Of a stretch of 60,496 bases of DNA, positions 10,449 through 26,061 are shown piece after piece; within the stretch, counting starts at the first letter, position 1, and each line of letters begins with the position of its first letter. Below the pieces are notes generated by a model. It saw only the letters and a list, made by a program, of their open reading frames with translations. It made no database searches and was not told the DNA's origin. Source of the DNA: Pyrinomonadaceae bacterium (GTDB lineage Bacteria > Acidobacteriota > Blastocatellia > Pyrinomonadales > Pyrinomonadaceae); contig DASYKW010000043.1 of assembly GCA_035995005.1 (NCBI GenBank), forward strand, positions 1-60,496, read 5' to 3'. The position numbers were made by a program, and so were the translations under genes.

Positions 10449-11096
10449 ATGATCTTTAGCGAGTCGATCACATATGACGATGCAGGGCACAGTCGGACTC
10501 GAGGGTCCGTCGCCGCTGTGGGCTCGCGTGAAGATACAGATTACCTTGACGCCCTGCGAGCCGGAGAGGCCGCAGCATTTGAAACACTAGTCGACCGGTA
10601 TTCCGGTGATATATACGCCCTGCTGTATCGCCTGACCGATAACCCGGACGATGCGAGCGACCTGACGCAGGACACGTTCCTGCGAGCTCTGAGGTCGGTG
10701 AAGGGATTTCGCGGAGACGCGAGTTTGAAAACCTGGCTTTTTCGCATCGCGATAAACGAATCGCGAAACCGGTTTCGCTGGTGGAAGCGAAGACGGCGTG
10801 ACGTGACGGTCTCGCTTGACGTCGCGATCGGCGATACCGACCGGACGATCTTTGATACGCTTGCGGACCGCGGCGAGAGTCCTGAGGATTCAGCTATCGC
10901 CCGCGAGAGGGAAGCAAGCTTGAGCGAGGCTCTTGCGCAGCTTGCCGATATTTACCGGGAGGCCGTCGTGCTTTGCGACATCGAGGGACTCTCATATGAG
11001 GAAACCGCCGCCGCCCTCGGAATCGGGCTCGGAACGGTGAAATCGCGGATCTCCCGCGGACGCGACGAGCTGAGAAAACGGCTCAAGGATATTTGA
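10449..11096 (+). CDS. ECF-family RNA polymerase sigma factor
   Basis: Region 2 (DASDLTQDTFLRALRSVKGFRGDASLKTWLFRIAINESRN) and region 4 HTH (YREAVVLCDIEGLSYEETAAALGIGLGTVKSRISRGRDEL). Confidence 0.92.
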   Translation: MIFSESITYDDAGHSRTRGSVAAVGSREDTDYLDALRAGEAAAFETLVDRYSGDIYALLYRLTDNPDDASDLTQDTFLRALRSVKGFRGDASLKTWLFRIAINESRNRFRWWKRRRRDVTVSLDVAIGDTDRTIFDTLADRGESPEDSAIAREREASLSEALAQLADIYREAVVLCDIEGLSYEETAAALGIGLGTVKSRISRGRDELRKRLKDI

Positions 11097-11333: not shown

Positions 11334-11361
11334 CTTTTCGGTTAGGTTGAGCAATAAAGCG

Positions 11362-12183
11362 ATGAAGTGCTCAAATTTACATTCCGATCTTGCGGTATAC
11401 GCCGACGGCCTCCTGTCCGAAAAGGAAGCGGCCTCGGTCGCGGCGCATCTTGAGACCTGCCCGGTGTGCCGTATCGCTCAAAGCGAAATAGTTGAGTTGC
11501 GATCGGCGCTTCGGCGGATGCAGCGGCCTGAGATGCCATCCGCGATGCGAAAGCAGCTGCAAGCGGCGGTTACCTCCGAGCGTCGTGCGACCAAGCACTC
11601 ATGGCTACCGTTCACCGCGGATATTCGCGAGTGGCTTACGCTGCGAGTGATGCCGTATGGTGTTGGCGTCGCAGCTACCGTAATGCTCGGGCTTGGACTT
11701 CTTTTGATGATCAATTCGAGCGGAGGCCGTTATACGCAGTTTGCCGCGGCCCCCGGTGAGTCCGGCATTCTGCTCGCATCTAACCACGATCCGCTTGCAG
11801 ATGTTACGGTTGACGGCATCTCGCCGGCAGCCTTTGCCCGCTCGCGTAATGACGTGTCGCGCGAGAGTCCCAGTATCAATCCAAAAGGTGCTCTTGTAGC
11901 ACTGACCCGGTCGCTTGTTCGCGGGAATATGAAGGATGACGAGGTCGTCGTCGTAGCGGATGTTTTTGGCAATGGCCTTGCGCAGATCGCCGAGGTTATC
12001 GAGCCGTCGCGTGACCGTAACGCCGTCGAGGAGCTTCAAAAGGCGCTGGGGACGGACCCCTCTTATGCTCCTTTCGTTCCTGCGACTATGGAGAATCGCC
12101 CGCAATCGATGCGCGTGGTGCTCCGCTTTCAGAGCGTAAACGTTAATACCAATCTAAAGAAGATCGGGCGGACCAAGCTCTAA
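11362..12183 (+). CDS. anti-sigma factor (zf-HC2 type), single-pass membrane
   Basis: HLETCPVCR = HxxxCxxC zinc motif near the N-terminus, with a TM (VMPYGVGVAATVMLGLGLLLMI). ATG 11362 is preferred over TTG 11347. Confidence 0.85.
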   Translation: MKCSNLHSDLAVYADGLLSEKEAASVAAHLETCPVCRIAQSEIVELRSALRRMQRPEMPSAMRKQLQAAVTSERRATKHSWLPFTADIREWLTLRVMPYGVGVAATVMLGLGLLLMINSSGGRYTQFAAAPGESGILLASNHDPLADVTVDGISPAAFARSRNDVSRESPSINPKGALVALTRSLVRGNMKDDEVVVVADVFGNGLAQIAEVIEPSRDRNAVEELQKALGTDPSYAPFVPATMENRPQSMRVVLRFQSVNVNTNLKKIGRTKL

Positions 12184-12186
12184 GTT

Positions 12187-13569
12187 TTACATCTTATCGA
12201 TCTCGGCCTTGAGGAGGGCGGCGATCTTCGGGTCGAGCTCGAGGAGCTTGTTGTATTGCTCTTGCGCAGCGGGCTTCATCTTTTTGCGCGTGTAGATAAT
12301 ACCGAGGTTGTATCGGGCCTTAGCGTATTTGGGACTTATCTGCAGGCATTTCAGATACGCCTCGCCCGCCTTGTCACGCTGATTGTCGGCGAAGTAGGCA
12401 TTCCCCAGCAGATACCAGCCGTCCGAGTAATCGGGCAGCTTGGTGACGTAATCTTCGAGCCCCTTAACGGCCAGCGAATACATCTTGGTCGCTTCGACGT
12501 TCTTCCCCGTGAGATTCATAGCCCGGCCGAGGTAGAAGTATGTTTCGCCGTCACCCGGTGCGATACGGAGCGCCGTATTGCATGCGTTTATCGCAAGATC
12601 GTACTGCTTGTTGTCATTATAAGCACGGCAAAGATTGGTGTAGCCAAGGTATTCTTTCGGCAGGAATATGACCGCTGCCTTTGCGGCCTCCACGGCATCC
12701 TGTGGGCGGTCGGCAAGGCTGTAATACCAGCTAACGTCAGTAAATAACGCTCCGCTGTTCGGGTATGTCCTGAGGCCCTGCTTCATCGCGTTGATGGCAT
12801 CCGTGTAGCGGCCCTCGCTGCGATATGCCTCGCCAAGGTTGCGATAGACGTTGACATTGTCCTGCTTCGCGGCGATGGCGCGGGTATAAGCGTCTATGGA
12901 AGCAGACCAGTTATGCTGCTTGTCGTGGGCCCCGCCCAGAAGGATGTACGTCTCGCCTACGAACCGCGTACCTTTTTTTAATGCGTTCTCAGCCGCGGTT
13001 TGCGTCGAAGCGGGGTTGCCCACGGCCGCGTATGTACGGGCAAGGTAATAGTCGACGTCGGCGTCATTCGGGGCGATCGTCGACGCTTGCCGGAGAGCTT
13101 CGAGGGCCCCCGCCGGATCATTCTTTGCGAGATCGACCTCGCCGAGGCCTTTCAGCAATAGCAGATCGCTCGGAGCTAGCTGCAGCCCGGCGCGTATGTC
13201 CTGAGCGGCTCGCTCGTAATCCAGTATCTGGTAGTAAATGAACGCACGGACGCGGTATATCTCGAGCGGTTTAAAGCCCTGAGTCAACGCGGTCGAGAAT
13301 TCATTAAGGGCCTCGACATTTTGCTTCAGCTCGAGATGAGCAAAGGCCTTGCGATAGTGCGCATACGGATTCGTGGCGACTACGGCGATCGACTGGCCGT
13401 ATTTGTCGATCGCATCCTGAAAGTTCTTTGCGACGAAAGATTTGTCGCCGAGGTCTTGAAGCTTTTTGGCTTGTTCCCTCTGCTTCTTATTCTGCGCTCC
13501 GAGCGGCGTTGCCACTGCGACCAGCAGGAGGAGAAGGGCGATCGGTCTTAACGAATTGATCTTGATCAT
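12187..13569 (-). CDS. secreted TPR-repeat protein
   Basis: Signal peptide MIKINSLRPIALLLLLVAVATPLGAQ followed by about 10 TPR-like units. Its start overlaps the kinase stop (ATGA). Confidence 0.85.
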   Translation of the reverse strand: MIKINSLRPIALLLLLVAVATPLGAQNKKQREQAKKLQDLGDKSFVAKNFQDAIDKYGQSIAVVATNPYAHYRKAFAHLELKQNVEALNEFSTALTQGFKPLEIYRVRAFIYYQILDYERAAQDIRAGLQLAPSDLLLLKGLGEVDLAKNDPAGALEALRQASTIAPNDADVDYYLARTYAAVGNPASTQTAAENALKKGTRFVGETYILLGGAHDKQHNWSASIDAYTRAIAAKQDNVNVYRNLGEAYRSEGRYTDAINAMKQGLRTYPNSGALFTDVSWYYSLADRPQDAVEAAKAAVIFLPKEYLGYTNLCRAYNDNKQYDLAINACNTALRIAPGDGETYFYLGRAMNLTGKNVEATKMYSLAVKGLEDYVTKLPDYSDGWYLLGNAYFADNQRDKAGEAYLKCLQISPKYAKARYNLGIIYTRKKMKPAAQEQYNKLLELDPKIAALLKAEIDKM

Positions 13570-15134
13570 TGCAGTATCGTGGTGCGGTCGTCCGACTTTT
13601 TAGGCGTTGATTTTGTTGTCGGTGGCTTTGTAGCGCCTGGTGTCGATTTGGCGACCACCTGCGGCGTCGGCCGGATCGTCGGACCGCCTGTGGTGACGTC
13701 ACGGTTATCGCCGGCGGGTGTCGTATTCGTGTCGCTCGTGACGGCTGTGTTTGACTCAGGAGTCGAGGTTTCGACGACGTTCACAGTCGGTATCGGGGTT
13801 GGCTCAACGCTTGGAGCCGGTGTCGGCGTGGCGTCCACCTTAACGGCGTAGTAATTCTTGTAATAATACCAGCCCCCGCCACCGGCGATGCCCGCGATCA
13901 GCAAGAGACCGATAAGGGCTCCGACGATGAGAGGTATCTTTGATGCTTTTTTCTCCTGCGTCGGAGCGACCAGTGAGTGCCCCGTTGTACCAGTAGCCTG
14001 TTCGCCTCCGGCTGCCGCCGCCGCAACGATTGGCTGCTGCGTTTGTTGAGGAGTCGGCAGGATCGCCGTCTGGATGCCGGCTTGCTCGGCAGCCGCTGAT
14101 GGTTCCATGCGGGCTGTTACATCGGCTGGCGGAGCGGAGATATGTATACGTTCCGCCGTCGCCATCTCCGGCAGCGATGATGCCATGGGATCGATCGTAT
14201 CTATCGGCACCGTTGCCGCTAGCGGCGGGGCCGTTTCAATCATCCTCGTCTTTGCTTCGCTGGCTGGCTTGGCGTCGCTCGCGGCGTTCTTTGGTGCGTT
14301 GAAGGCCCGACGTAGCGCCTTTTGCATGTCTAGGGCACTCGCCCAACGCTGGTCTTGGCGGACAGAAAGTCCATGCAGAATTGCGTCCGAGATCGGTTTT
14401 GTGACCTCGTCATTAACGCCGGTCAGCGGTTTTATCGGATCGTCGTTACCGCCTAGGATCGCCTCGGCCCGCGTAAGTGCGTCAGGCGGGACGAGATTGC
14501 TCAGGAACTGGTAAAGGGTCGCCGACAGCGAATAGATATCACTGCGAGCGTCGGTACCAGTGCCGCGGACCTGCTCCATCGACGCAAAGTGCGGCGAGTA
14601 TCCGACGACGCTTCCGGTCGCGGGAGCCTCTTTAGAGCCGGTCTCAAAGTCCTTCGAGAGTCCGAAATCCAGTAAGATGATGTGATTCTCATCAGTCAGC
14701 TTAAGATTCTCCGGTTTGATGTCGCGATGAATGATCGGCGGCTCATGCGAGTGAAGATAGTTAAGCGCGTCGAGTAGCTGGTCGGCCCAGAACATCACCC
14801 AGCTGAGAGGAAAGGGCTTGTTGGCATTTGCGAGACGCTTACCGAGATCGTCACCGGAGATATTCTCCATCACGAGGAATTGTCCCTCGCCCTCGATAAA
14901 GTGATCGATCACTTTTGGCAGGACAGGATGTCGGAGTCGCGCGAGAATGCGCGCTTCGCGCTCGAAGGCATTGCCGAGCGTCGAATCCGATTCGAACCTC
15001 GTGCGCTTGAGAGCGACGGCGCTTCCCAAACGCTGATCGACAGCGAGGTACACTTCACCCATTCCGCCCTTGCCGATCGATTGAACGACAAGATAGCGGC
15101 TCCCGATCATCGTGTTGGGGGCGAGCTGTTTCAT
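13566..15134 (-). CDS. Hanks-type Ser/Thr protein kinase, single-pass membrane
   Basis: G-loop GKGGMGEVY, VALK, catalytic loop HRDIKPENL, DFGLS. A TM (IPLIVGALIGLLLIAGIAGGGGW) and a Thr/Pro-rich extracellular tail follow. Confidence 0.92.
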   Translation of the reverse strand: MKQLAPNTMIGSRYLVVQSIGKGGMGEVYLAVDQRLGSAVALKRTRFESDSTLGNAFEREARILARLRHPVLPKVIDHFIEGEGQFLVMENISGDDLGKRLANANKPFPLSWVMFWADQLLDALNYLHSHEPPIIHRDIKPENLKLTDENHIILLDFGLSKDFETGSKEAPATGSVVGYSPHFASMEQVRGTGTDARSDIYSLSATLYQFLSNLVPPDALTRAEAILGGNDDPIKPLTGVNDEVTKPISDAILHGLSVRQDQRWASALDMQKALRRAFNAPKNAASDAKPASEAKTRMIETAPPLAATVPIDTIDPMASSLPEMATAERIHISAPPADVTARMEPSAAAEQAGIQTAILPTPQQTQQPIVAAAAAGGEQATGTTGHSLVAPTQEKKASKIPLIVGALIGLLLIAGIAGGGGWYYYKNYYAVKVDATPTPAPSVEPTPIPTVNVVETSTPESNTAVTSDTNTTPAGDNRDVTTGGPTIRPTPQVVAKSTPGATKPPTTKSTPKKSDDRTTILQ

Positions 15135-16786: not shown

Positions 16787-16870
16787 TTGAGATATGGGAG
16801 CGGCGAATTAAGAAGGCCGGAGCTTCTGACGCTTCGACGCTTCAATTCTCCATTCAATTGGGCCTCTCTC

Positions 16871-16899
16871 TTGACGGAAACGCGTCGAGTCGGTAGCCT
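16871..16899 (+). promoter_or_regulatory. candidate promoter of tRNA-Arg
   Basis: TTGACG (16871-16876), 17 nt, TAGCCT (16894-16899), 15 nt before the mature tRNA 5' end. Confidence 0.35.
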
Positions 16900-16914
16900 A
16901 GTAATTCGCGTTTC

Positions 16915-16991
16915 GCACCCGTAGCTCAGCTGGATAGAGTACTTGACTACGAATCAAGGGGTCGCATGTTCGAATCATGCCGGGTGTACCA
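16915..16991 (+). tRNA. tRNA-Arg (anticodon ACG), CCA encoded
   Basis: Hand-folded cloverleaf of 77 nt. Acceptor GCACCCG/CGGGTGT, D-arm GCTC..GAGT, anticodon arm CTTGA-CTACGAA-TCAAG, T-arm GCATG-TTCGAAT-CATGC, discriminator A plus CCA. Confidence 0.92.
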
Positions 16992-17030
16992 CTCATTACG
17001 TAAGTAAACAGGACGTTTACGAGAAAAAAA

Positions 17031-17056
17031 AGACAGGCTTTTGGCCTGTCTTTTTC
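17031..17056. terminator. intrinsic terminator after tRNA-Arg (bidirectional shape)
   Basis: An A8 run, then AGACAGGC-TTTTG-GCCTGTCT, then TTTTC. Confidence 0.8.
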
Positions 17057-17086
17057 AATGTGGGAGCGGAAGCGTCTAATTCAGCT

Positions 17087-17118
17087 GGTTCGAACGCCTC
17101 GTGGGCGACGTTCGAACC
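17087..17118. repeat. perfect 10-bp inverted repeat
   Basis: GGTTCGAACG (17087-17096), 12-nt loop, CGTTCGAACC (17109-17118). It lies between the tRNA terminator and the sigma/CHAT module. Confidence 0.6.
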
Positions 17119-17251
17119 GACTTCCCCCCGGCTAGAAAATAAAGTCCCTTTGATTGCTAATGCGAAAACCGTCGAAAACCTTTCAACCGTTCTCGCCGAG
17201 ACCTAAAAAGATAAGTAATTGCGAAAGTTAATATCGATCGCGGGCAGGCCT

Positions 17252-17281
17252 TTGCTAATATTTCAGCTCTTGCCCCATAAT
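17252..17281 (+). promoter_or_regulatory. candidate sigma70-like promoter of the sigma/CHAT module
   Basis: TTGCTA (17252-17257), 18 nt, CATAAT (17276-17281), 42 nt upstream of ATG 17324. Confidence 0.35.
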
Positions 17282-17323
17282 GGCGAAATCGCTTGGCAAG
17301 GTTAATCCTTCCACTCGTTCCTG

Positions 17324-17902
17324 ATGCACCAAAATCCGACGATCACGCCCGAGAGCTTTAGCCAGCTTCTAAGGTGGCTCGGTCTCAACGCGGAGTCGGG
17401 TGGCGTTGAATATGAAATGATCCGCAAGCGCTTGATCCGGTTCTTTGCGTTCCGTGGGTGCTACGAAGCGGACCGCTTGGCCGATGTCGCGATCGACCGT
17501 GTCTTGGCAAGAATTGCGACTCTGGAAGACACCTATGTCGGTGATCCGGTTTGGTACTTTCTTGGCGTTGCCACAAAGGTGCATCTCGAATGGACGCGTC
17601 AACAAAACCGGACCGTTGATCTGGAAGAGATCTCACAGGCACCGGTCCTGGACCAATCGGAGGACGAGCCTGAATTCCGCTGTCTGGACGCGTGTCTCGA
17701 TTCGCTGCCAAGCGAAACTCGCGACCTGATCCTCAGTTACTACACCTCAGAGAATAAAGACCACATAACATCGCGCAAGCACCTGGCTAAGGAGCTGGGA
17801 ATCTCAATAAGTGCTCTGCATATCCGCGCCAGCCGCATCCGCAGCAGACTTGCCGAATGCGTCGCAAAGTGTTTAGAGGAACGTGGCGGAAAGGTTTCTT
17901 AG
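17324..17902 (+). CDS. ECF-like sigma-70 family factor
   Basis: Region-2-like YEMIRKRLIRFFAFRGCYEADRLADVAIDRVLARI..WYFLGVATKVHLEW and region-4 HTH LPSETRDLILSYY..RKHLAKELGISISALHIRASRIRSRL. It ends 18 nt before the CHAT gene. Confidence 0.8.
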   Translation: MHQNPTITPESFSQLLRWLGLNAESGGVEYEMIRKRLIRFFAFRGCYEADRLADVAIDRVLARIATLEDTYVGDPVWYFLGVATKVHLEWTRQQNRTVDLEEISQAPVLDQSEDEPEFRCLDACLDSLPSETRDLILSYYTSENKDHITSRKHLAKELGISISALHIRASRIRSRLAECVAKCLEERGGKVS

Positions 17903-17920
17903 ATTTTAGACATTAAGTAT

Positions 17921-20900
17921 ATGGGGCCTATCGATCCTAATCAGCCAGAATTCAGCGTCGAGCCTGGGACGCTCAGAAGGTATCTTTTAGGAACATTGGA
18001 GGCCGGGCCTCTCTTGGATAGGTTTGAGATCGACTTGATCAAGAGCGAGGAACTCGGCGACCTTCTGAGCGTAGCTGAGGGCGAATTGATCGAGGAGTAT
18101 CTCGATGGTCGTCTAAGCGTGGACGATCTCGTCCGTTTCGAGAGAACGTTCCTGTCTACGTCCGAACGCCGGCTGGAGGTCAGACTTGTTTCAAAGCTGC
18201 GCCAAACCGCACGGAACAATGCCTCTGACAATCGAGCCATATCGCGATCTGCTCCCCGACCCTTTACAGGTTATTTCTCCTCAGTTCGACTCGCGATCAT
18301 TGCCCTAATTTGTGTCGGCGTCGCCTTTGGCGTTTGGTGGATGCGATCGAGTCTAGGAATGGCCGACGCTGGCATTGTAGAGTTGGCACAAGCATACCGA
18401 GGACAACGGCCGACGCGATCGCGCGTGAGCGCTTTTCCTGAATATGCGCCGTTCACCGAGGTTCGAGGTAGTGCGGTCACGACGCCCACTGACCCGATAG
18501 CCCGCGACCGAGCAGAACGATACCTTTTTGATGCGGTAACGGAGACAGGAGATATAAAGGCTCACCGCGGCCTCGCCTCGTTGTACTTGGTCGATAAGAA
18601 ATACGAGAAGGCCCTAATTGAGCTCGAGAGTGCGCACGATCTAAACCCAAATGACGACACAGTCGAAAGCGATCTCGGGGCCCTTTATCTTGAGATGGCT
18701 TTACAGGCCGGGGCAAAGAATGATGCGGCAGGGTCCATGGTGTCGATCGAAAAGAGCCTTGAGCATTTAGACCATGCCCTCGAATTGGATCCGCGTCTTC
18801 CTGCCGCCCTTTTTAACAGGGCACTATGTTTGCAACTTGCGCTTAACACCGATCAGGCGAGACAGGCTTGGCGAGCCTATTTGGCCGTCGATCCGGAAAC
18901 ACAATGGGCAGTCGAAGCCCGATATAACCTGCAGCAGCTCGAGTCAAAAGCCTATAGTGACCGATCGGCCAAGGACGTTGAGGAGGAGTTCCTGAATGCA
19001 ATGAAGTCGGGCGACGAGTCTCAGGCAAGGGATCTCCTGGTCAATAATCGCGAGCTAATACGGGAAAAGTATCTCCCTCAGCGTCTCGCCATGTCTTTCG
19101 TGCAGGACCGCGATCGCCGACCCGAGTTGACGGAAGCTCTTCACTACGCGGGTCGTCTTGAAAAAGGCGCGACCGGTGATGAATTTGCAGAGGGTATTGC
19201 CGGCTTTTACACGAGTGCCTCCACGACCCAGCTCGCCACGATCGAGAAAGCTCATGCCGATATTCGGGCAGGTTACGAGTTGTGTCTGTCCTCACATTAC
19301 GAGCCTGCTCGTGTGCTCTTTGAGCAAGGTCGACAATCGTTCGTTAGCGTCAACGATGAATGGGAAGCAGCCCTTGCCGGTTATTTCATCGGCTACACGC
19401 TCGCGAATACGGGTCAGGTGGACCGGACTTTGAGCGAATTAGAGAGCGTGGCGGCCTACGCGCGAAAACACAAATATCTTTGGCTCGATGCGACCGCGAC
19501 ATATTGGATAGCCGGAGCCCATCTACAACGCGGAGAACATACAAATGCGTCGGAATCGTTTAAGCGAGCCCTTTCTTTAGCCGAGGGGATAAAGGACTCA
19601 TATGCCATACAACGAAATCTGCTAGAGCTCGCAAAACTTAGCTCCGAAGCCGGGCAACGGGACGATTGTCTTGCCTACATCTCCCGGATCCTGCAGGAGT
19701 CCGCGAGCCACGGCAGTAGTCTTCGTCAGCAATACCGGAATCATTCGCTCGTTTTTGAAATGCTTTCTCAAATGGAGATGCCTCATCTCGCGAGAGCGGT
19801 CGCCGTTGAGTGCGTGACGCTCGCCGACGCCGCCGACGACAAGGCATGGATGAGTGAATCGCGGAGTCAAGCTGGAGCCGCCTTCACCCGGACCGGCGCA
19901 TTTCAGAATGCACAACAGTGGATCGACGAGGCAACGCAAAGTGTGCTGGCCGTCGATGACGCCGATACGCGTCGGCGGCTGCAGGCATTTGCGTCGCTAA
20001 GACGCGGCGATCTTCGGTTCGCCACTCGGGACTTTGACGGCTCGCAACAGGCGTATGCCGACGCTATCGAATATTACGACGCGTCAGGATTGCCATCTTT
20101 CCGACAACAAGGACATATGGGTCTGCTGAAATCGCTGGTCGCGCTCGATCGCGCCGATGAATTGCAGACGCAGATCCCGGCAAGCATCCAAATCATCGAG
20201 CAGGGCAGAAAGCAGATACTCGACGAGCGCGAGCGCTCGGGCTTTCTTGATGAGCACGAGAACGTCTATGACATTGCCACCGGATTCGAGTTCGATCGTG
20301 CGAATTACGAAAAGGCATTCGAATATGCTGAGTCGTCGAGTTCCCGAGCGTTGCTTGACTGGCTCGAGAAGGGCAACTCGTACAACGAATCGACCAGTCG
20401 AGCTGAGTTTCTAACCAGCGACACGGCCACGCCGCTGTCGCTCGGCGAGATAAGGGCACGGATACCGTCGAATGTCCAGGTTGTTAAATATGCGGAGCTC
20501 GACGACAAGCTTTTGATCTGGGTTATCTCGGGCGAACAGTTTGCAACGGTCAGCATTGCTATTCCTGAGGCGGAGCTCGAAAAGAAGATCGACGCTTACT
20601 CAAAGCTGATTACCTCAAATACTGCGGTCTCCGCTGACGAAAGAGATAAGCTCGGCAGAGAACTCTACAGCCTTGTCTTGGCGCCGATCGAAAAAGTTTT
20701 GGTGGCGGACAAACGCATATGCCTTGTACCCAGCAAGGGCCTTTTTCGCTTGCCGTTCGCCGCAATTCCATTGCCGGATGGAACCACGGTCATTTCAAGG
20801 TTCACGATCCTTTACTCGCCCAGCTTGAGTGTATTCCTGCATTGCACGAAGACAGCGGAGGAAAAAGGAGCTCAAAAGGGTGAAAGCCTCCTGGCAGTCG

Positions 20901-21514
20901 GCAACCCGGCGTTTGACCGCGTGAAATTCGCGGATCTGGCCTATTTGCCAAATACCGAGGAGGAAGTGAAGAACATTTCCAAGCAGTATGACAATGCCCG
21001 AATACTCCTCGGGGCCAATGCAACTAAACGACAATTCCTGTCGAGCGTAAAGAACGCTGATGTCGTTCATTTTGCGGGACATTACGTGATGGTGCCGGGA
21101 GCCCCGACCTCTTCATACCTGCTCCTGGCGAAGAATGGCGACATGCCGGGTTCTGACGCGCTTACGAACAATGAATTGGGAAAATACCGGCTGGACAACA
21201 CCAAGCTCATTGTTCTTGCGGCTTGCCGTTCTGGCATCGAGGGTTCGTCGGTTGGGGAAGGATTAGTAGGCCTCTCCCGCACATTTATAGCAGCCGGTGT
21301 TCCGGTTGTGCTGGGGGCTGCGTGGGATGTCGAAAGCCACGCGACCGCGCTGCTAATGAAAGAGTTTCATTCGAATCGACGCAACTACCACATGGCTACC
21401 GCCGAGGCATTGCAGAACGCTCAGCTTGCGGTCGCAAACGATCCAAGTGGAATGTTCAAGGATCCGTATTACTGGGCCGGGTTCATCACGATAGGCGGCT
21501 CAACCAGTTTCTAA
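17921..21514 (+). CDS. membrane-anchored anti-sigma-like / TPR / CHAT (caspase-like peptidase) fusion protein
   Basis: 1197 aa. Helical N-domain LRRYLLGTLEAGPLLDRFE.. with no His/Cys zinc motif, one TM at aa ~122-141 (VRLAIIALICVGVAFGVWWM), about 700 aa of TPR-like repeats. The C-terminal CHAT-like region has HFAGH (nt 21068-21082) and LAACRSG (Cys codon 21224-21226). Confidence 0.85.
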   Translation: MGPIDPNQPEFSVEPGTLRRYLLGTLEAGPLLDRFEIDLIKSEELGDLLSVAEGELIEEYLDGRLSVDDLVRFERTFLSTSERRLEVRLVSKLRQTARNNASDNRAISRSAPRPFTGYFSSVRLAIIALICVGVAFGVWWMRSSLGMADAGIVELAQAYRGQRPTRSRVSAFPEYAPFTEVRGSAVTTPTDPIARDRAERYLFDAVTETGDIKAHRGLASLYLVDKKYEKALIELESAHDLNPNDDTVESDLGALYLEMALQAGAKNDAAGSMVSIEKSLEHLDHALELDPRLPAALFNRALCLQLALNTDQARQAWRAYLAVDPETQWAVEARYNLQQLESKAYSDRSAKDVEEEFLNAMKSGDESQARDLLVNNRELIREKYLPQRLAMSFVQDRDRRPELTEALHYAGRLEKGATGDEFAEGIAGFYTSASTTQLATIEKAHADIRAGYELCLSSHYEPARVLFEQGRQSFVSVNDEWEAALAGYFIGYTLANTGQVDRTLSELESVAAYARKHKYLWLDATATYWIAGAHLQRGEHTNASESFKRALSLAEGIKDSYAIQRNLLELAKLSSEAGQRDDCLAYISRILQESASHGSSLRQQYRNHSLVFEMLSQMEMPHLARAVAVECVTLADAADDKAWMSESRSQAGAAFTRTGAFQNAQQWIDEATQSVLAVDDADTRRRLQAFASLRRGDLRFATRDFDGSQQAYADAIEYYDASGLPSFRQQGHMGLLKSLVALDRADELQTQIPASIQIIEQGRKQILDERERSGFLDEHENVYDIATGFEFDRANYEKAFEYAESSSSRALLDWLEKGNSYNESTSRAEFLTSDTATPLSLGEIRARIPSNVQVVKYAELDDKLLIWVISGEQFATVSIAIPEAELEKKIDAYSKLITSNTAVSADERDKLGRELYSLVLAPIEKVLVADKRICLVPSKGLFRLPFAAIPLPDGTTVISRFTILYSPSLSVFLHCTKTAEEKGAQKGESLLAVGNPAFDRVKFADLAYLPNTEEEVKNISKQYDNARILLGANATKRQFLSSVKNADVVHFAGHYVMVPGAPTSSYLLLAKNGDMPGSDALTNNELGKYRLDNTKLIVLAACRSGIEGSSVGEGLVGLSRTFIAAGVPVVLGAAWDVESHATALLMKEFHSNRRNYHMATAEALQNAQLAVANDPSGMFKDPYYWAGFITIGGSTSF

Positions 21515-21535
21515 GACCGCAGGAGGAATGATCCA

Positions 21536-22237
21536 ATGACAATGAAGGTAGAAGTCGATCTCAGAGGTCTTGCGTTTTGCTTTGCCAAAGATATGGCCTG
21601 GAATGTCTACATGGTTTGCGATCCAGATCATCCGGCTAACTATTCCGCCAACGGATCGGCACAGGTCCCACTTCATCAGAATGGCATTGACCGGGAATTG
21701 ATCTTCGAAAGCGAGGGCATGGTGTTCGACGTTCCAAAGCATGGATCCGGGTATGAGCAGATCTTTAACATGGCCGCTGATTATGCTCATGGCCCGAACG
21801 CACTCAAGTTTTTTAGAACAGGAGCAACGGATCTGGTCTCAGCCAGAGTGCCATCGGCGATCGTCAGCGCGAACGAGTTTACTGCCCGAAGTTACTACGT
21901 TCAGGACATAACCACGTATGTCGGAGCTCCACCTAAGATCATACCGCCGGTGGCGATGCGGATAAAAGCCACATTCGAGGTCTCGCACGATCTCAAGGTT
22001 TCGATCAGCGATGCATCGGGGACAAGGCCGTTAGATACGTTCCCTTATCGCGACGGGACGACGATCAAGATCCAGTTGGATAATGATTGCCGTGTGGAGC
22101 AGCAACGAAACGATTTTCTCGATATCTATGAGTTCGTACAGGATCGTCGAGGAGTAAGATTCGCGACCGGTCAGGTGAGGAACTCACCTTCGACCGGAGA
22201 CTGTGACCCGGTAGATATCGATCCTCCGCCCGTATGA
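21536..22237 (+). CDS. hypothetical protein (233 aa, no recognisable motif)
   Basis: AGGAGG at 21521-21526 sits 9 nt before the ATG and 21 nt after the CHAT stop. No signal peptide or TM. Pro-rich C-terminal tail DPVDIDPPPV. Confidence 0.7.
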   Translation: MTMKVEVDLRGLAFCFAKDMAWNVYMVCDPDHPANYSANGSAQVPLHQNGIDRELIFESEGMVFDVPKHGSGYEQIFNMAADYAHGPNALKFFRTGATDLVSARVPSAIVSANEFTARSYYVQDITTYVGAPPKIIPPVAMRIKATFEVSHDLKVSISDASGTRPLDTFPYRDGTTIKIQLDNDCRVEQQRNDFLDIYEFVQDRRGVRFATGQVRNSPSTGDCDPVDIDPPPV

Positions 22238-22420
22238 TCGATCTGCTGACGCTCGTTTCTTTGTACGCAAGCTTCTTTGCAACTCCAAAACTCAATGGAA
22301 AATTAAGGCAGGTTGACTGCTCCTGCGTTTTCCATTACGTTGCTTAAGTCGCCTTACCAGCCTCCCGGCTAGTGAGCGACAAAAGGCGACGGGTGTTTGT
22401 GGGAACGCACGTCTGCCCTT

Positions 22421-22454
22421 GGAGTCGCCCTTTCGGGGGCGACTCTTTGCGTTT
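22421..22454 (+). terminator. intrinsic terminator-like hairpin
   Basis: GAGTCGCCC-TTTCGG-GGGCGACTC (9 bp) followed by TTTGCGTTT. It lies about 185 nt after the stop of the 233-aa gene. Confidence 0.6.
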
Positions 22455-22604
22455 ACGATCCTACGCGCGATCGGCGAGCGGTTTGTAAACACTGATATCA
22501 GCTCGGATCGGATTTTCTCAGGACCCAAGCGGCCATCTGCTGCTTTTTTCATTTCTAAAATCGAGGGTCGAATAGCCGTTTATTCAGGCATCACGACGAC
22601 GGGG

Positions 22605-22643
22605 GAAAACAGGCGGTTAAGGCCTCTGTTTTCTGTTGCTTTT
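22605..22643 (+). terminator. second terminator/attenuator-like hairpin upstream of lon
   Basis: GAAAACAG(GC)-loop-(GC)CTCTGTTTTC followed by TGTTGCTTTTG. It lies about 90 nt before the lon ATG. Confidence 0.4.
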
Positions 22644-22732
22644 GCAAGGCGTTTTTGCGTAAATAGGATTATTCGTACCCGACAACCTCATGTCAGGAAC
22701 CCGCCCGGGGGTTTTGCCGTTTTACAAGCTAT

Positions 22733-25159
22733 ATGCAGGAATTTACAGACCAGATGCCCTCGGACATCGAGCGTTTTCCGATGGTGCCCATCCGGGACGT
22801 CGTCATATTTCCGTTTACCAAGGTCGCATTCAAGATCGGCCGGCCGTCGTCGGTCCGGGCTCTTGAGCAGGCGATGTCTGGCGAGAGGCAGATATTCCTT
22901 GCAACTCAACACGACGCGACCGTCGACGAGCCAACGCCCGATCAGGTCTATCGGATCGGCACGCTGGGACGCATCCTGCAGGCGCAGCGGCTGGAGAACG
23001 GCCAGATAAAGGTCGTCGTCGAGGGCAGGGAGCGCGGACGTTCGCTTCGTATCGAGCAGGAATCGGACGGGATGTTTTACGCTCACGTCCGTCGCGTGGC
23101 GTCGACCGATGAATCCGGTTATCGCACGGATGGCCTGCTGCAAAAGATCCACTCGCTCGTCGAGCAGTTTCTCAAGGTCTCGCCAGATGCATACGCAGAC
23201 GCTCTGCACGCGAGTCTTCGCGGTGTATCGAGCGCGCAGATCGCGGACTCAATGTCGTCTCATTTGCGGATTAGCGTCGAAGACAAGCAGGCCTTACTCG
23301 AAACGATCTCCGTTCAGGAACGCCTGCAAAAGCTGGCCGACGCCCTCACGGCGGAGATCGAGAAGCGACAGCTCGACCGCAATATTCACTCGCGCACCAA
23401 AAAGCAGATGGACAAACATCAGCGCGAGTACTACCTGAACGAGCAGATCAAGGCCATTCATAAGGAACTTGGCCGCAAGGACGAGAAGGCCGAGCTGGAC
23501 GACCTCAAGAAAAAGATCGCCGACGCGGGCATGACCGAGGAGGCCAGCGACAAAGCGATGCAGGAATTCTCGCGGCTCGAGGCAATGCCGCCGATGTCGG
23601 CCGAGGGCACCGTCGCCCGCAGCTATATCGACTGGCTGGTCAACGTGCCGTGGCAGGCACGCTCCGAGGAGATCGAGGATCTTGGCGCAGCCGAGAAAAC
23701 GCTTAACGAGGACCACTACGGACTCGAAAAGATCAAGGAACGCATCCTCGAGTTTCTCGCGGTCCGGCAGCTTGTAAAGAACCCAAAAGGCACGATCCTG
23801 TGCTTTGCAGGCCCTCCGGGAGTTGGTAAAACGTCTCTCGGGAAATCGATCGCCAACGCCACCGGGCGCAAATTCGTTCGGCTCGCGCTCGGCGGCGTCC
23901 ATGACGAGGCCGAGATCCGCGGCCACCGACGCACGTACATAGGCTCAATGCCGGGACAGATCATTCAGCTGATGAAGCGGGCGGGGACGACAAATCCCGT
24001 GATCCTGCTCGATGAGGTCGATAAGCTTGGGCGTGACTTCCGTGGCGATCCGTCGGCGGCCTTATTGGAAGTACTCGATCCCGAGCAGAACCACACCTTC
24101 CGCGATCACTATCTCGATGTCGATTACGACCTCTCACATGTTTTCTTTATCGCGACGGCGAACGTGCTTCACACCATCCCGCCCGCGTTACAGGACCGTC
24201 TCGAGATCCTCAGTCTCGGTGGCTACACTGAGCGTGAAAAGGTTGAGATCGCCAAGCGGCACCTGATCGTCAAGCAATGCGAGAGCAATGGCATTGCCGG
24301 CGAGACCGTTGCTTTTACCGACGACGGCATCCTGGAGATAATTCGCCACTACACGCGTGAGGCGGGAGTCCGCAATCTCGAACGCGAGATCGGGTCGTGT
24401 CTGCGCAAGATCGCAAGAAAATTTGTCGGCACCGAGGACAAGACGGATTTCAAGATCGTGATCGATGCCGAGAAAGTGCAGGAACTGCTTGGGATCATAC
24501 GCTTTCGCAAGCAGGACATCGCTCGCAAAAGCGAGATCGGTCTCGTCAATGGCCTAGCATGGACCGAGGTCGGCGGCGACGTGCTTCAGATCGAGGCAAC
24601 GCTCGTAAAAGGCAAGGGCGAGGTCACGCTAACCGGCAAGCTCGGCGAGGTCATGCAGGAATCGGCGAAGGCTGCTCTTACATGCGTTCGTTCGCGCGCC
24701 GAAGAACTTGGCATCGATCCGGCCGACTTTAAGGAAAAAGACCTGCATATCCACGTGCCCGAGGGAGCGATCCCGAAAGACGGACCTTCAGCCGGCATTA
24801 CGATGGCGACGGCGATGGTCTCGGCTTTGACGAAAAAAGCTGCTCGGCACGACGTCGCTATGACAGGCGAGATCACGCTTCGCGGCAAGGTGCTGCCCAT
24901 CGGCGGCGTTAAGGAAAAGCTGCTGGCGGCGCACCGCTTCGGGCTAAAGACGATCATTCTCTCTAAGGAGAACGAGAAAGACCTGGTGGACATTCCCGAT
25001 GAGGTGCGCGACGAGCTGACGATCCATGTCGTGGATATGATCGATGAGGTGCTGAGATACGCGATGGAGCCCGACGCCGTGCTTGAACCGCTGGCGCCGC
25101 CGCAAGTTTGGAACCCCGATGCGGGCCCGACCGGTGACCAGCCGACTGTGATCGAATAG
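22733..25159 (+). CDS. lon: ATP-dependent Lon protease (LonA)
   Basis: Lon N-domain ([13 protein letters not shown]), Walker [10 protein letters not shown], Walker B ILLDEVDK, proteolytic [14 protein letters not shown] catalytic-Ser motif. Confidence 0.97.
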
Positions 25160-25165
25160 AGACCA

Positions 25166-25612
25166 ATGAGCCGAGAAAGCGAATCAGCCGACCTGATAAT
25201 GAAGCTTTACGAGCTTCGACGCGAGGAGAAGATGCGTGATGCCCGCCGCTGGGTGATAACGTTTTTTCCAGAGTCGTTCGACGATGTGATGCAGACAGTC
25301 GTTGATGAAAAGACGAGCGCGAATTTTCGCATGCTCACGACATACTGGGACATGGCCGCGAGCTTTGTGAACCGCGGCGCGATCGACGAGGCGATGTTCC
25401 TCGATTCGGCGGGCGAGTCGTGGGTCGTGTTTGCCAAGGTCCAGCCTTACCTCAACGAGTACCGCGAGGCGATCAAAAATCCCGGCTTTATGAAGCAGCT
25501 TGAGGACTTGCTGATGCGGCAGCCTAACGCGCAGGAAATGCTCGATATTCGTCGTGAGTCGATGAAACGCTGGATGGCGGCACGCGCGGAACTGCAGGCG
25601 AAATCGGCCTAG
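25166..25612 (+). CDS. hypothetical protein (148 aa)
   Basis: Well-formed helical ORF starting 6 nt after the lon stop. No motif recognised. Confidence 0.7.
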
Positions 25613-26061
25613 AAACAGCGGTGCAGCCGGCCTGAGAGCCCCTGAGTGAGCGTGAAGGTCGATATTAGGTCGCCGGTTTTTCTATCGGTCAGCGTCAGGG
25701 TCATCTTCTTTCCCGAAACCTTTCCTTTAAATATCACCGCCCGAGCGGATGGCTGCCGGTCTATGCGGATCGGTCCGGGGCCGTTTGGCGTGAAAGTCCC
25801 GACGGCTTCGAACGTGCCATTCCCCTTTACTCTTAGCTGCCGATTTATCTGGCCCGTTGCACAATCGAAGTCAACGCTAACGGCGTCGCTATCGACCGTC
25901 ATAGCGATCCCGGTACCGCCCCAGGCTCCACGTGAGATCGCCTTCGTTCGCTGAGCAGCGGCTGTGCCGGTAACGGCGGCAATGGCGAACATTGCGGCCA
26001 CAAGAATAGTCAGGCGGACTAATAGTGGCTTTGCTCCGGACCGTGGTAGTATTTCTGTCAT
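25609..26061 (-). CDS. small secreted hypothetical protein
   Basis: ORF 25609..26331 trimmed to ATG 26061 (MTEILPRSGAKPLLVRLTILVAAMFAIAAVTGTAAAQ, a signal peptide). The longer form would overlap the divergent gene at 26126. Confidence 0.6.
   Translation of the reverse strand: MTEILPRSGAKPLLVRLTILVAAMFAIAAVTGTAAAQRTKAISRGAWGGTGIAMTVDSDAVSVDFDCATGQINRQLRVKGNGTFEAVGTFTPNGPGPIRIDRQPSARAVIFKGKVSGKKMTLTLTDRKTGDLISTFTLTQGLSGRLHRCF

Follow-up and report, generated by a model that had tools for sequence, protein, structure and literature searches.

A three-gene module next to tRNA-Arg

We analyzed a 60,496-nt stretch of DNA from a Pyrinomonadaceae bacterium (contig DASYKW010000043.1 of assembly GCA_035995005.1; the whole stretch is called the window below), in which a tRNA-Arg gene is followed by three genes. 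They encode what appears to be a divergent sigma factor of the extracytoplasmic function (ECF) type (gene 1), a large protein with an anti-sigma-like N-terminus, one transmembrane (TM) helix, TPR repeats and a caspase-like CHAT domain (gene 2), and a protein of an unannotated family (gene 3). The data presented below suggest that this module is a sigma/anti-sigma switch of the DdvS/DdvA type known from Myxococcus xanthus, released by regulated proteolysis. Coordinates of the genes, protein parts and signals are collected in Table 1. An initial annotation, made from the sequence alone, had described the tRNA, a terminator behind it and three co-directional genes, and all of these were recovered: ARAGORN predicted the same tRNA gene, a hairpin with a T-run follows it, and the three open reading frames (ORFs) all lie on the + strand, separated by 18 nt (genes 1 and 2) and 21 nt (genes 2 and 3), with the AGGAGG element spaced as described ahead of the third ATG. 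The ORFs on the opposite strand of the module are short and overlap the three genes. The start of the module had been placed at 17252, which is not a start codon; since a TAA ends that frame at 17303, gene 1 does not begin there, and the ATG listed in Table 1 agrees with the N-termini of homologues. Sigma-70-like promoter matches were no more frequent in the region than in shuffled sequences.

Table 1. Features of the three-gene module and its borders in the window
Feature	Position	Strand	Basis or remark
tRNA-Arg(ACG)	16915-16991	+	ARAGORN; left border of inserted segment
5.6-kb segment missing from the closest syntenic relative, holding only the three-gene module	16995-22629	.	blastn against L085
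Terminator-like hairpin after the tRNA, A-run and T-run on either side	17027-17055	+	RNA fold -17.6 kcal/mol, z-score -3.4
Sigma-70-like promoter match TTGCTA-18-CATAAT	17252-17281	+	consensus match only; 43 nt 5' of the sigma ATG
Gene 1, divergent ECF-like sigma, 192 aa	17324-17902	+	ORF; weak sigma-family matches
Gene 2, TM-TPR-CHAT anti-sigma-like, 1197 aa	17921-21514	+	ORF; Pfam CHAT/TPR
Helical N-domain, zinc-less, anti-sigma-like (aa 15-103)	17963-18229	+	AlphaFold2; weak zf-HC2 matches
Single transmembrane helix (aa 120-144)	18278-18352	+	hydropathy and AlphaFold2
Juxtamembrane linker (aa 159-191), candidate cleavage site	18395-18493	+	low pLDDT yet conserved motif
Helical scaffold and TPR superhelix, predicted extracytoplasmic (aa 192-817)	18494-20371	+	Pfam TPR, AlphaFold2 helix pairs, DdvA alignment
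CHAT caspase-like domain (aa 820-1197)	20378-21514	+	Pfam; His1054 codon 21080-21082, Cys1102 codon 21224-21226
AGGAGG ribosome-binding site of gene 3	21521-21526	+	ends 9 nt ahead of the gene 3 ATG
Gene 3, 233-aa all-beta protein, unannotated family	21536-22237	+	ORF; homologues 3' of CHAT gene
Intrinsic terminator closing the operon	22421-22446	+	11-bp stem, 7 GC pairs, T-rich tail; -22.1 kcal/mol, z-score -3.8

Gene 2 is a homologue of the anti-sigma factor DdvA

The DdvS/DdvA pair of M. xanthus consists of an ECF sigma factor and a transmembrane anti-sigma factor with a periplasmic TPR-CHAT region (PMC6061681, PMC11506125; PDB 8ROT, 8RW5, 8RLZ), and DdvA is ordered as a CHCC zinc N-domain, a TM helix, a flexible linker, a scaffold, TPR repeats and CHAT (PMC6061681, PMC11506125). 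In gene 2, Pfam CHAT (PF12770) matched residues 910-1192 (E 5.7e-59, 200.4 bits against a cut-off of 24) and Pfam TPR models matched from residue 213, which bears out the TPR-like repeats and CHAT-like C-terminus proposed by the initial annotation; a weak match to the separase family (C50) was also obtained (3.7e-6). The putative catalytic motifs were located where they had been placed, HFAGH with H1050/H1054 and LAACRSG with C1102, His1054 lying 48 residues before Cys1102 in the His-then-Cys order of clan CD cysteine peptidases. Approximately 90 full-length homologues of 1180-1230 aa were found, and those with a named source came from Pyrinomonadaceae, Blastocatellia or other Acidobacteriota. 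Among 33 aligned homologues, 23-48% identical (the range found for the full-length set as well), H1054 and C1102 were invariant and H1050 was at least 90% conserved. When the profile of these 33 sequences was compared with the PDB, the best match other than designed proteins was M. xanthus DdvA (8rot_B/8rw5; E 4.1e-22), with three colinear blocks: residues 147-344 of gene 2 with 97-287 of DdvA (linker and scaffold), 508-677 with 422-587 (TPR) and 1028-1142 with 834-943 (CHAT). In this alignment H1054/C1102 fell on the DdvA catalytic dyad H862/C907. A search of the PDB with the single gene 2 sequence returned designed TPR proteins only, DdvA being reached only by the family profile.

The structural model led to the same protein. 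The full-length AlphaFold2 prediction of gene 2 (pLDDT 88.7, pTM 0.80) showed, in order, the helical N-domain (15-103), a disordered stretch, the TM helix (120-144), the linker (159-191), helical repeats to approximately residue 817 and an alpha/beta CHAT domain, and the top Foldseek matches of this model were again DdvA 8rw5/8rot (E 1.2e-19, TM-score 0.66-0.70, ~1070 aligned columns), followed by separases (E ~1e-15) and Csx29 (E 6e-14 to 1e-10). Of the features of DdvA that were looked for, the colinear scaffold-TPR-CHAT region with its TPR superhelix and His-Cys dyad, the single TM helix with a flexible linker and the sigma gene directly upstream were all found in the same order, whereas the CHCC zinc anti-sigma domain (ZASD) and an adjacent antiviral defence island were not.

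The N-domain of gene 2 was modeled as helices at residues 15-22, 29-41, 43-61, 67-75 and 81-103 and shares the conserved pattern (I/L)RxYLLGxL...IE.RLLTDD.F...E.ELI..YLDG.L...ER..FE..FL..PERR. PF13490 (zf-HC2) was matched by 16 of 22 family N-domains (best E 1.8e-4), and the streptomycete anti-sigma factor RsrA was a marginal PDB match; the helical, zinc-less and anti-sigma-like character that had been assigned to this domain stands. In three related loci (related loci are given by our own L numbers) a small C-terminal domain of an unrelated kind follows the zinc-less N-domain and TM helix (L023 17016-17801 (-), L028 14621-15511 (-) and L030 18289-19089 (-)), and each of these proteins of 261-296 aa adjoins a paralogue of the sigma. 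Since it is fused to other C-terminal domains next to sigma homologues, the N-domain behaves as expected of a portable sigma-binding module, and we consider it to be a zinc-free anti-sigma-like domain that probably binds the sigma.

Gene 2 has one hydrophobic segment only (residues ~120-141; the Kyte-Doolittle 19-residue maximum is 2.19 at residue 120), as had been noted, and it is the basic residues ahead of the TM helix in homologues that suggest an N-in topology. The linker that follows was modeled with low confidence over residues 159-191 (pLDDT below 50 at 181-186), and yet it carries the conserved motif QRPxExR...YAP...TRG (R182-G183), with conservation of at least 90% at R163, R168, R182 and G183. 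In the alignment this segment corresponds to the linker of DdvA (97-143); in the DdvA dimer each dyad faces the linker of the other protomer, part of 97-143 being opposite the dyad of the partner chain (PMC11506125). We suggest the motif QRPxExR...TRG as a candidate cleavage or recognition site. In two loci (L023 7429-13078 and L030 7269-13114) a split arrangement was observed, in which the sigma is followed by a 275-309-aa protein with the N-domain, TM helix, linker and first scaffold, then by two unrelated genes, and then by a 1074-1090-aa TM-scaffold-TPR-CHAT protein in which the N-domain is missing, as if the anti-sigma gene had split or been duplicated in part.

Gene 1, a putative divergent ECF sigma factor

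Library matches of gene 1 were to sigma families (TIGR02989, 2.4e-10; SigZ, 7e-7; TIGR02937, 7e-7; Sigma70_r4_2, 4e-4), and the gene 1 family profile matched the ECF sigma factors RpoE (2q1z), SigL and SigE over positions 46-177 with E-values of 4e-4 to 4e-3. In hhalign comparisons the family aligned over sigma-2 as well as sigma-4 with Escherichia coli RpoE (E 3.6e-4) and with the window's own canonical ECF sigma (E 1.9e-4), while the match to the type III-E sigma model was very weak (E 0.024). We read gene 1 as a very divergent ECF-type sigma; the similarity upholds the earlier sigma-like assignment, although no curated sigma threshold is reached, as discussed below. The protein contains Cys46/120/124/179/183 in the pattern CLxxCL...CVxxC, of which Cys124 and Cys179 do not vary in the sigma family, Cys120 and Cys183 being mostly conserved. 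The sigma may have a metal or redox site of its own, formed by these cysteines, whereas the usual zinc ligands are missing from its anti-sigma partner.

A possible second, canonical sigma/anti-sigma pair lies ~6 kb upstream in the window (10449-11096 (+) and 11347-12183 (+)). The latter gene encodes a 278-aa protein with a clear zf-HC2 domain (E 6.8e-8), and the 215-aa ORF preceding it aligned with ECF sigmas in hhalign.

The three-gene unit is conserved in Acidobacteriota

A genome scan with 11 sequences recovered 79 loci, of which 37 held full-length or near full-length relatives, all in metagenome-assembled genomes of Acidobacteriota. A sigma homologue was found directly upstream, on the same strand and with short gaps, in 29 of the 32 related loci having upstream DNA, so that the sigma and CHAT adjacency is recurrent. 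When neighboring ORFs in 39 loci were clustered, the only conserved families besides CHAT, present in all 39, were the sigma (32 loci) and gene 3 (31 loci), and the genes flanking the module vary from genome to genome.

The initial annotation had called the third gene an orphan, which is not the case. A word-seeded search found two relatives only, and an iterative hidden Markov model (HMM) search then found many: a homologue of 250-320 aa, sometimes in tandem, directly follows the CHAT gene in almost every related locus, and a profile search of 1.84 billion representatives gave 672 clusters at E<=1e-3 and 248 at E<=1e-10. Gene 3 had no match in Pfam, NCBIfam, PADLOC, PHROGs or a PDB profile search. 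Its AlphaFold2 model is all-beta (pLDDT 89.7, pTM 0.87) and gave only noise in Foldseek searches of the PDB and BFVD (TM-score <0.2); the conserved residues are G11, H32, N183, C185, D193 and C223. As the only conserved non-regulatory gene of the module, gene 3 is its likeliest output or partner, and it could act as an output or as a substrate.

No signal peptide was detected in the gene 3 of the window or in any of the 36 aligned CHAT-adjacent homologues of its clade (36/36), which start directly at the domain, while many distant members of the family carry Sec, lipoprotein or twin-arginine translocation (Tat) signals. In L156 (1-1877) a Tat-bearing member is placed 53 nt behind the C-terminus of a CHAT gene, and the partner is thus exported in some systems, in contrast to the copy in the window; most contigs of the signal-peptide-bearing relatives are too short to tell the gene context. 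A Peptidase_S8 subtilase gene was found 3' of the gene 3 homologue in ~11 related loci, and no Peptidase_S8 homologue was found in the window. Examples are L030 14005-15768, L023 14047-15585, L015 14653-16425, L062 8283-10703 and L004 5342-7825. In L153 (3508-6736) a Peptidase_S8 gene also follows a Tat-signal relative of gene 3 that has no CHAT gene next to it; hence the gene 3 family and the subtilases may act together in pairs.

The CHAT ORF and gene 3 share a reading frame in the window (21512-21538), with TAA and 21 nt between them. Stop-codon readthrough fusing the two proteins was considered and rejected; since the two genes are not regularly in frame with each other in related loci (offsets not tallied), the shared frame is probably a coincidence.

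A related three-gene unit in L084 (5340-10122) contains a TM-TPR-CHAT anti-sigma of the true zinc type (H-x3-C-x2-C), with an ECF sigma 7 nt upstream and a secreted HExxH metallopeptidase gene 3 nt downstream. The latter gene was considered as a relative of gene 3 and was ruled out by its identity as a secreted HExxH peptidase.

The module is most simply an insertion at tRNA-Arg

A synteny search anchored on the VWA gene, which lies upstream of the tRNA, recovered 68 metagenomic loci. The closest syntenic relative, L085, in which Lon is 90% identical, has the order kinase, 186-aa ORF, VWA, tRNA-Arg and lon. By blastn, L085 11093-11176 corresponds to window 16911-16994 and L085 11254-14244 to window 22630-25632. 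Since the two blocks are separated in L085 by only 77 nt, between tRNA-Arg and lon, the intervening segment of the window is an indel that holds only the module. The tRNA-Arg is 100% identical in the syntenic relatives, the three-gene module is present in none of ~25 of them, and the gene content after the tRNA differs in nearly every one. Moreover, the place directly after this tRNA-Arg(ACG) is taken by a tyrosine integrase in L105 (11267-12412 (-)) and in L151 (308-1582 (-)). This presence/absence, together with the integrases and the varied genes, indicates that the tRNA-Arg site is an integration hotspot and that the module is most simply an insertion, acquired horizontally as judged from these comparisons. 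No integrase ORF and, in a repeat search, no direct repeat of the tRNA end (att) of at least 14 nt were found within 16800-22800; of the hallmarks of tRNA-linked islands, presence/absence polymorphism 3' of the tRNA is thus seen, and an integrase and att repeats are not.

The lower GC content that had been reported for the module is real but was overstated, with values of 54.0% for the module vs 56.1% for the window rather than 49% vs 58%. The GC of the module is the lowest of all same-size windows of the 60,496-nt stretch (standard deviation 0.9%), and the GC at third codon positions of genes 1, 2 and 3 is 0.63, 0.59 and 0.56 vs 0.676 +/- 0.037 for 28 other ORFs. Within the insert, between the tRNA terminator and the sigma gene, there is also a 10-bp perfect inverted repeat (GGTTCGAACG...CGTTCGAACC) at 17087-17118, with a predicted fold of -18.8 kcal/mol (z-score -2.4).

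The neighbors of the module in the window are housekeeping or signaling genes (Lon, VWA, a Ser/Thr kinase, EngB and Rho). The Ser/Thr kinase gene and that of a 460-aa TPR protein (13566-15134 (-) and 12187-13569 (-)) overlap by 4 nt; the kinase matched many PADLOC kinase models (PD-T4-6), probably through a generic kinase fold. PADLOC applied to 124 neighbor proteins of related loci identified CBASS (cyclic oligonucleotide-based antiphage signaling system) genes in L081, type I restriction-modification in one to two loci and little else. L081 (117-5609 of its contig, Joint Genome Institute Ga0604922_0000013) holds the closest relative of the module (CHAT 48% and gene 3 63% identical), next to a phage-type integrase, a DncV-like cyclase and a patatin (CBASS) and an S24 peptidase, a setting that echoes the control of a CBASS-CRISPR (clustered regularly interspaced short palindromic repeats) island by DdvS/DdvA. 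A role in defence is possible, yet it is not indicated for the copy in the window.

A DdvS/DdvA-type switch and the alternatives

We estimate a probability of about 0.7 that the module is a DdvS/DdvA-type sigma/anti-sigma switch released by regulated proteolysis. By analogy with DdvA, the helical N-domain of gene 2 (residues ~15-103), which is zinc-less, would hold the sigma in the cytoplasm, and the TM helix and the flexible conserved linker would join it to the scaffold-TPR-CHAT region outside the cytoplasmic membrane. His1054/Cys1102 would be activated by a signal from outside the cytoplasm, probably a protein that binds to the TPR/CHAT surface; the activated CHAT domain would then cut the juxtamembrane linker of the partner molecule, the conserved TRG at 182-183 being the candidate site. 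Loss of the bulky domain would allow an RseP-type site-2 protease to cleave within the membrane and release the sigma, which would presumably transcribe its own operon and hence gene 3. The CHAT self-cleavage step on its own is more doubtful than the switch as a whole, and we hold it to be slightly less probable than its opposite. For DdvA, signal-induced CHAT autoproteolysis in trans was proposed as the site-1 step ahead of RseP cleavage, and truncated DdvA is lost in an RseP-dependent manner (PMC11506125). Because the DdvA authors made this proposal, the possibly self-cleaving sigma-release switch suggested by the initial annotation is the published model and not a new architecture: an anti-sigma with an extracytoplasmic TPR sensor and its own protease was right in kind, whereas the statement that no characterised example exists was not, since DdvS/DdvA has this architecture (PMC6061681, PMC11506125; 8ROT, 8RW5).

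Several observations weigh against this interpretation. Gene 1 scored below every curated sigma cut-off of Pfam and NCBIfam (TIGR02937, 28.9 vs 42.9; Sigma70_r4_2, 20.3 vs 25.7). The H-x3-C-x2-C zinc motif is not present in the N-domain of gene 2, its His/Cys ligands being replaced in every family member, and the window's own zf-HC2 match is weak (E 0.5, residues 55-75). Self-cleavage by CHAT would be an extrapolation from a system in which it is itself unproven: DdvA dyad mutants behave like wild type, and the inducing signal is not known (PMC11506125). Without a signal peptide, the gene 3 product of the window would not meet the CHAT domain. A search with two-block k-mers in the 250-300 nt upstream of 28-29 sigma genes found no conserved ECF-type promoter clearly above shuffles, and for this reason no regulon can be predicted and autoregulation is unsupported. 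Finally, no defence genes flank the module in the window, and its proteins had no PADLOC matches.

The silent dyad mutants of DdvA, and its active site described as resting and 'incomplete' (PMC11506125), would also fit a true sigma/anti-sigma pair in which CHAT acts only as a sensor and as a steric block against the site-2 protease, the site-1 cut being made by a separate protease, for instance the subtilase encoded after gene 3 in the ~11 related loci or a general periplasmic protease. Other peptidase genes follow CHAT anti-sigma genes as well, namely HExxH (L084), C39-like (L031) and C25-type in the ddv operon (PMC11506125). The invariance of His1054/Cys1102 across 33 divergent homologues argues instead for a working protease, and, as no S8 homologue is encoded in the window, the copy there functions without such an enzyme; we therefore regard a separate site-1 protease as unlikely. 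It is still less likely that CHAT cuts another protein, either the gene 3 product or a foreign or envelope protein, with sigma release secondary or independent and gene 3 serving as a substrate, a securin-like inhibitor or a co-sensor. Gene 3 is almost always co-encoded, distant members often carry export signals (with the Tat member after the CHAT gene in L156), and there are precedents, as separase is held by securin and the CHAT protease Csx29 cleaves the adjacent-gene product Csx30 (PMC10028731). Against this, the clade of CHAT-adjacent gene 3 homologues to which the window's copy belongs lacks signal peptides, which would put gene 3 and the CHAT domain in different compartments. The sub-threshold sigma matches of gene 1, together with a region 2 that Pfam did not detect, could also mean that gene 1 encodes an adaptor or a helix-turn-helix regulator of another kind, and that gene 2, as a membrane CHAT protease, has no part in transcription control; with a partner that is homologous to a proven anti-sigma factor and has a zf-HC2-like N-domain, we consider this very improbable.

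Relation to known systems

On the DdvS/DdvA-type reading, the module is a variant of a published model, the design itself being already known. An unknown-protein gene lies downstream in both, and a peptidase gene is also found in many relatives of the module. In contrast to DdvA, gene 2 has an N-domain without the CHCC zinc site and is ~200 aa longer, with ~74 more residues ahead of the catalytic His; gene 1 is much more divergent than DdvS and contains conserved Cys pairs. The host is an acidobacterium, the third gene belongs to an unannotated family, and no CBASS or CRISPR genes flank the module in the window. Only a subset of the published DdvS/DdvA-type pairs lies near defence genes (PMC6061681, PMC11506125). 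The type III-E Craspase (Csx29 TPR-CHAT, Csx30, Csx31 and RpoE) likewise ties a TPR-CHAT protease genetically to an ECF-type sigma and uses proteolysis as the switch. Craspase is cytoplasmic and RNA-guided, and its protease and anti-sigma-like substrate are separate proteins, whereas the module combines protease and anti-sigma in one membrane protein and has no CRISPR genes. Separase (Peptidase C50) shares the succession of helical repeats and a caspase-like His-Cys domain, and differs from gene 2 as a soluble, monomeric enzyme of eukaryotes that is controlled by securin and phosphorylation. In the canonical pathway of regulated intramembrane proteolysis, the site-1 cut in an ECF anti-sigma factor is normally made by an enzyme of its own. 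To our knowledge, none of the known self-cleaving anti-sigma factors has a caspase-like domain, and DdvA is the sole characterised anti-sigma factor with a TPR-CHAT domain. As in regulated intramembrane proteolysis of the RseA/DegS/RseP type, a single-pass anti-sigma would hold the sigma, and removal of the extracytoplasmic domain would license the site-2 protease (PMC11506125).

A more far-reaching reading would join these elements. The sigma, the CHAT anti-sigma and gene 3 would form a mobile, self-contained sense-and-respond cassette in which the anti-sigma is its own site-1 protease; gene 3, all-beta, lacking a PDB match and often paired with a subtilase, would be an unrecognised effector or ligand of caspase-like signaling, possibly in anti-phage or envelope defence; and the sigma (CLxxC...CVxxC) would have taken over the zinc or redox site from the anti-sigma. 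As a whole we regard this combination as speculative and rather unlikely.

In the published survey, DdvA relatives were found in Myxococcota and one Comamonas only (PMC6061681, PMC11506125). What is new here is an Acidobacteriota clade of at least 37 loci, with a zinc-less N-domain, a very divergent sigma with conserved cysteines and a conserved third gene. The gain is incremental and brings no new principle. As judged from homology, the DdvA-type design is common in soil Acidobacteriota (Pyrinomonadaceae), where it takes the form of a compact, mobile unit of three genes whose predicted sigma-binding domain is zinc-free. The clade offers two handles, the linker motif QRPxExR...TRG where cleavage is predicted and a conserved partner of unknown fold often with a subtilase next to it, and the two could assist in locating the cleavage site of such switches and in identifying their signal and output.

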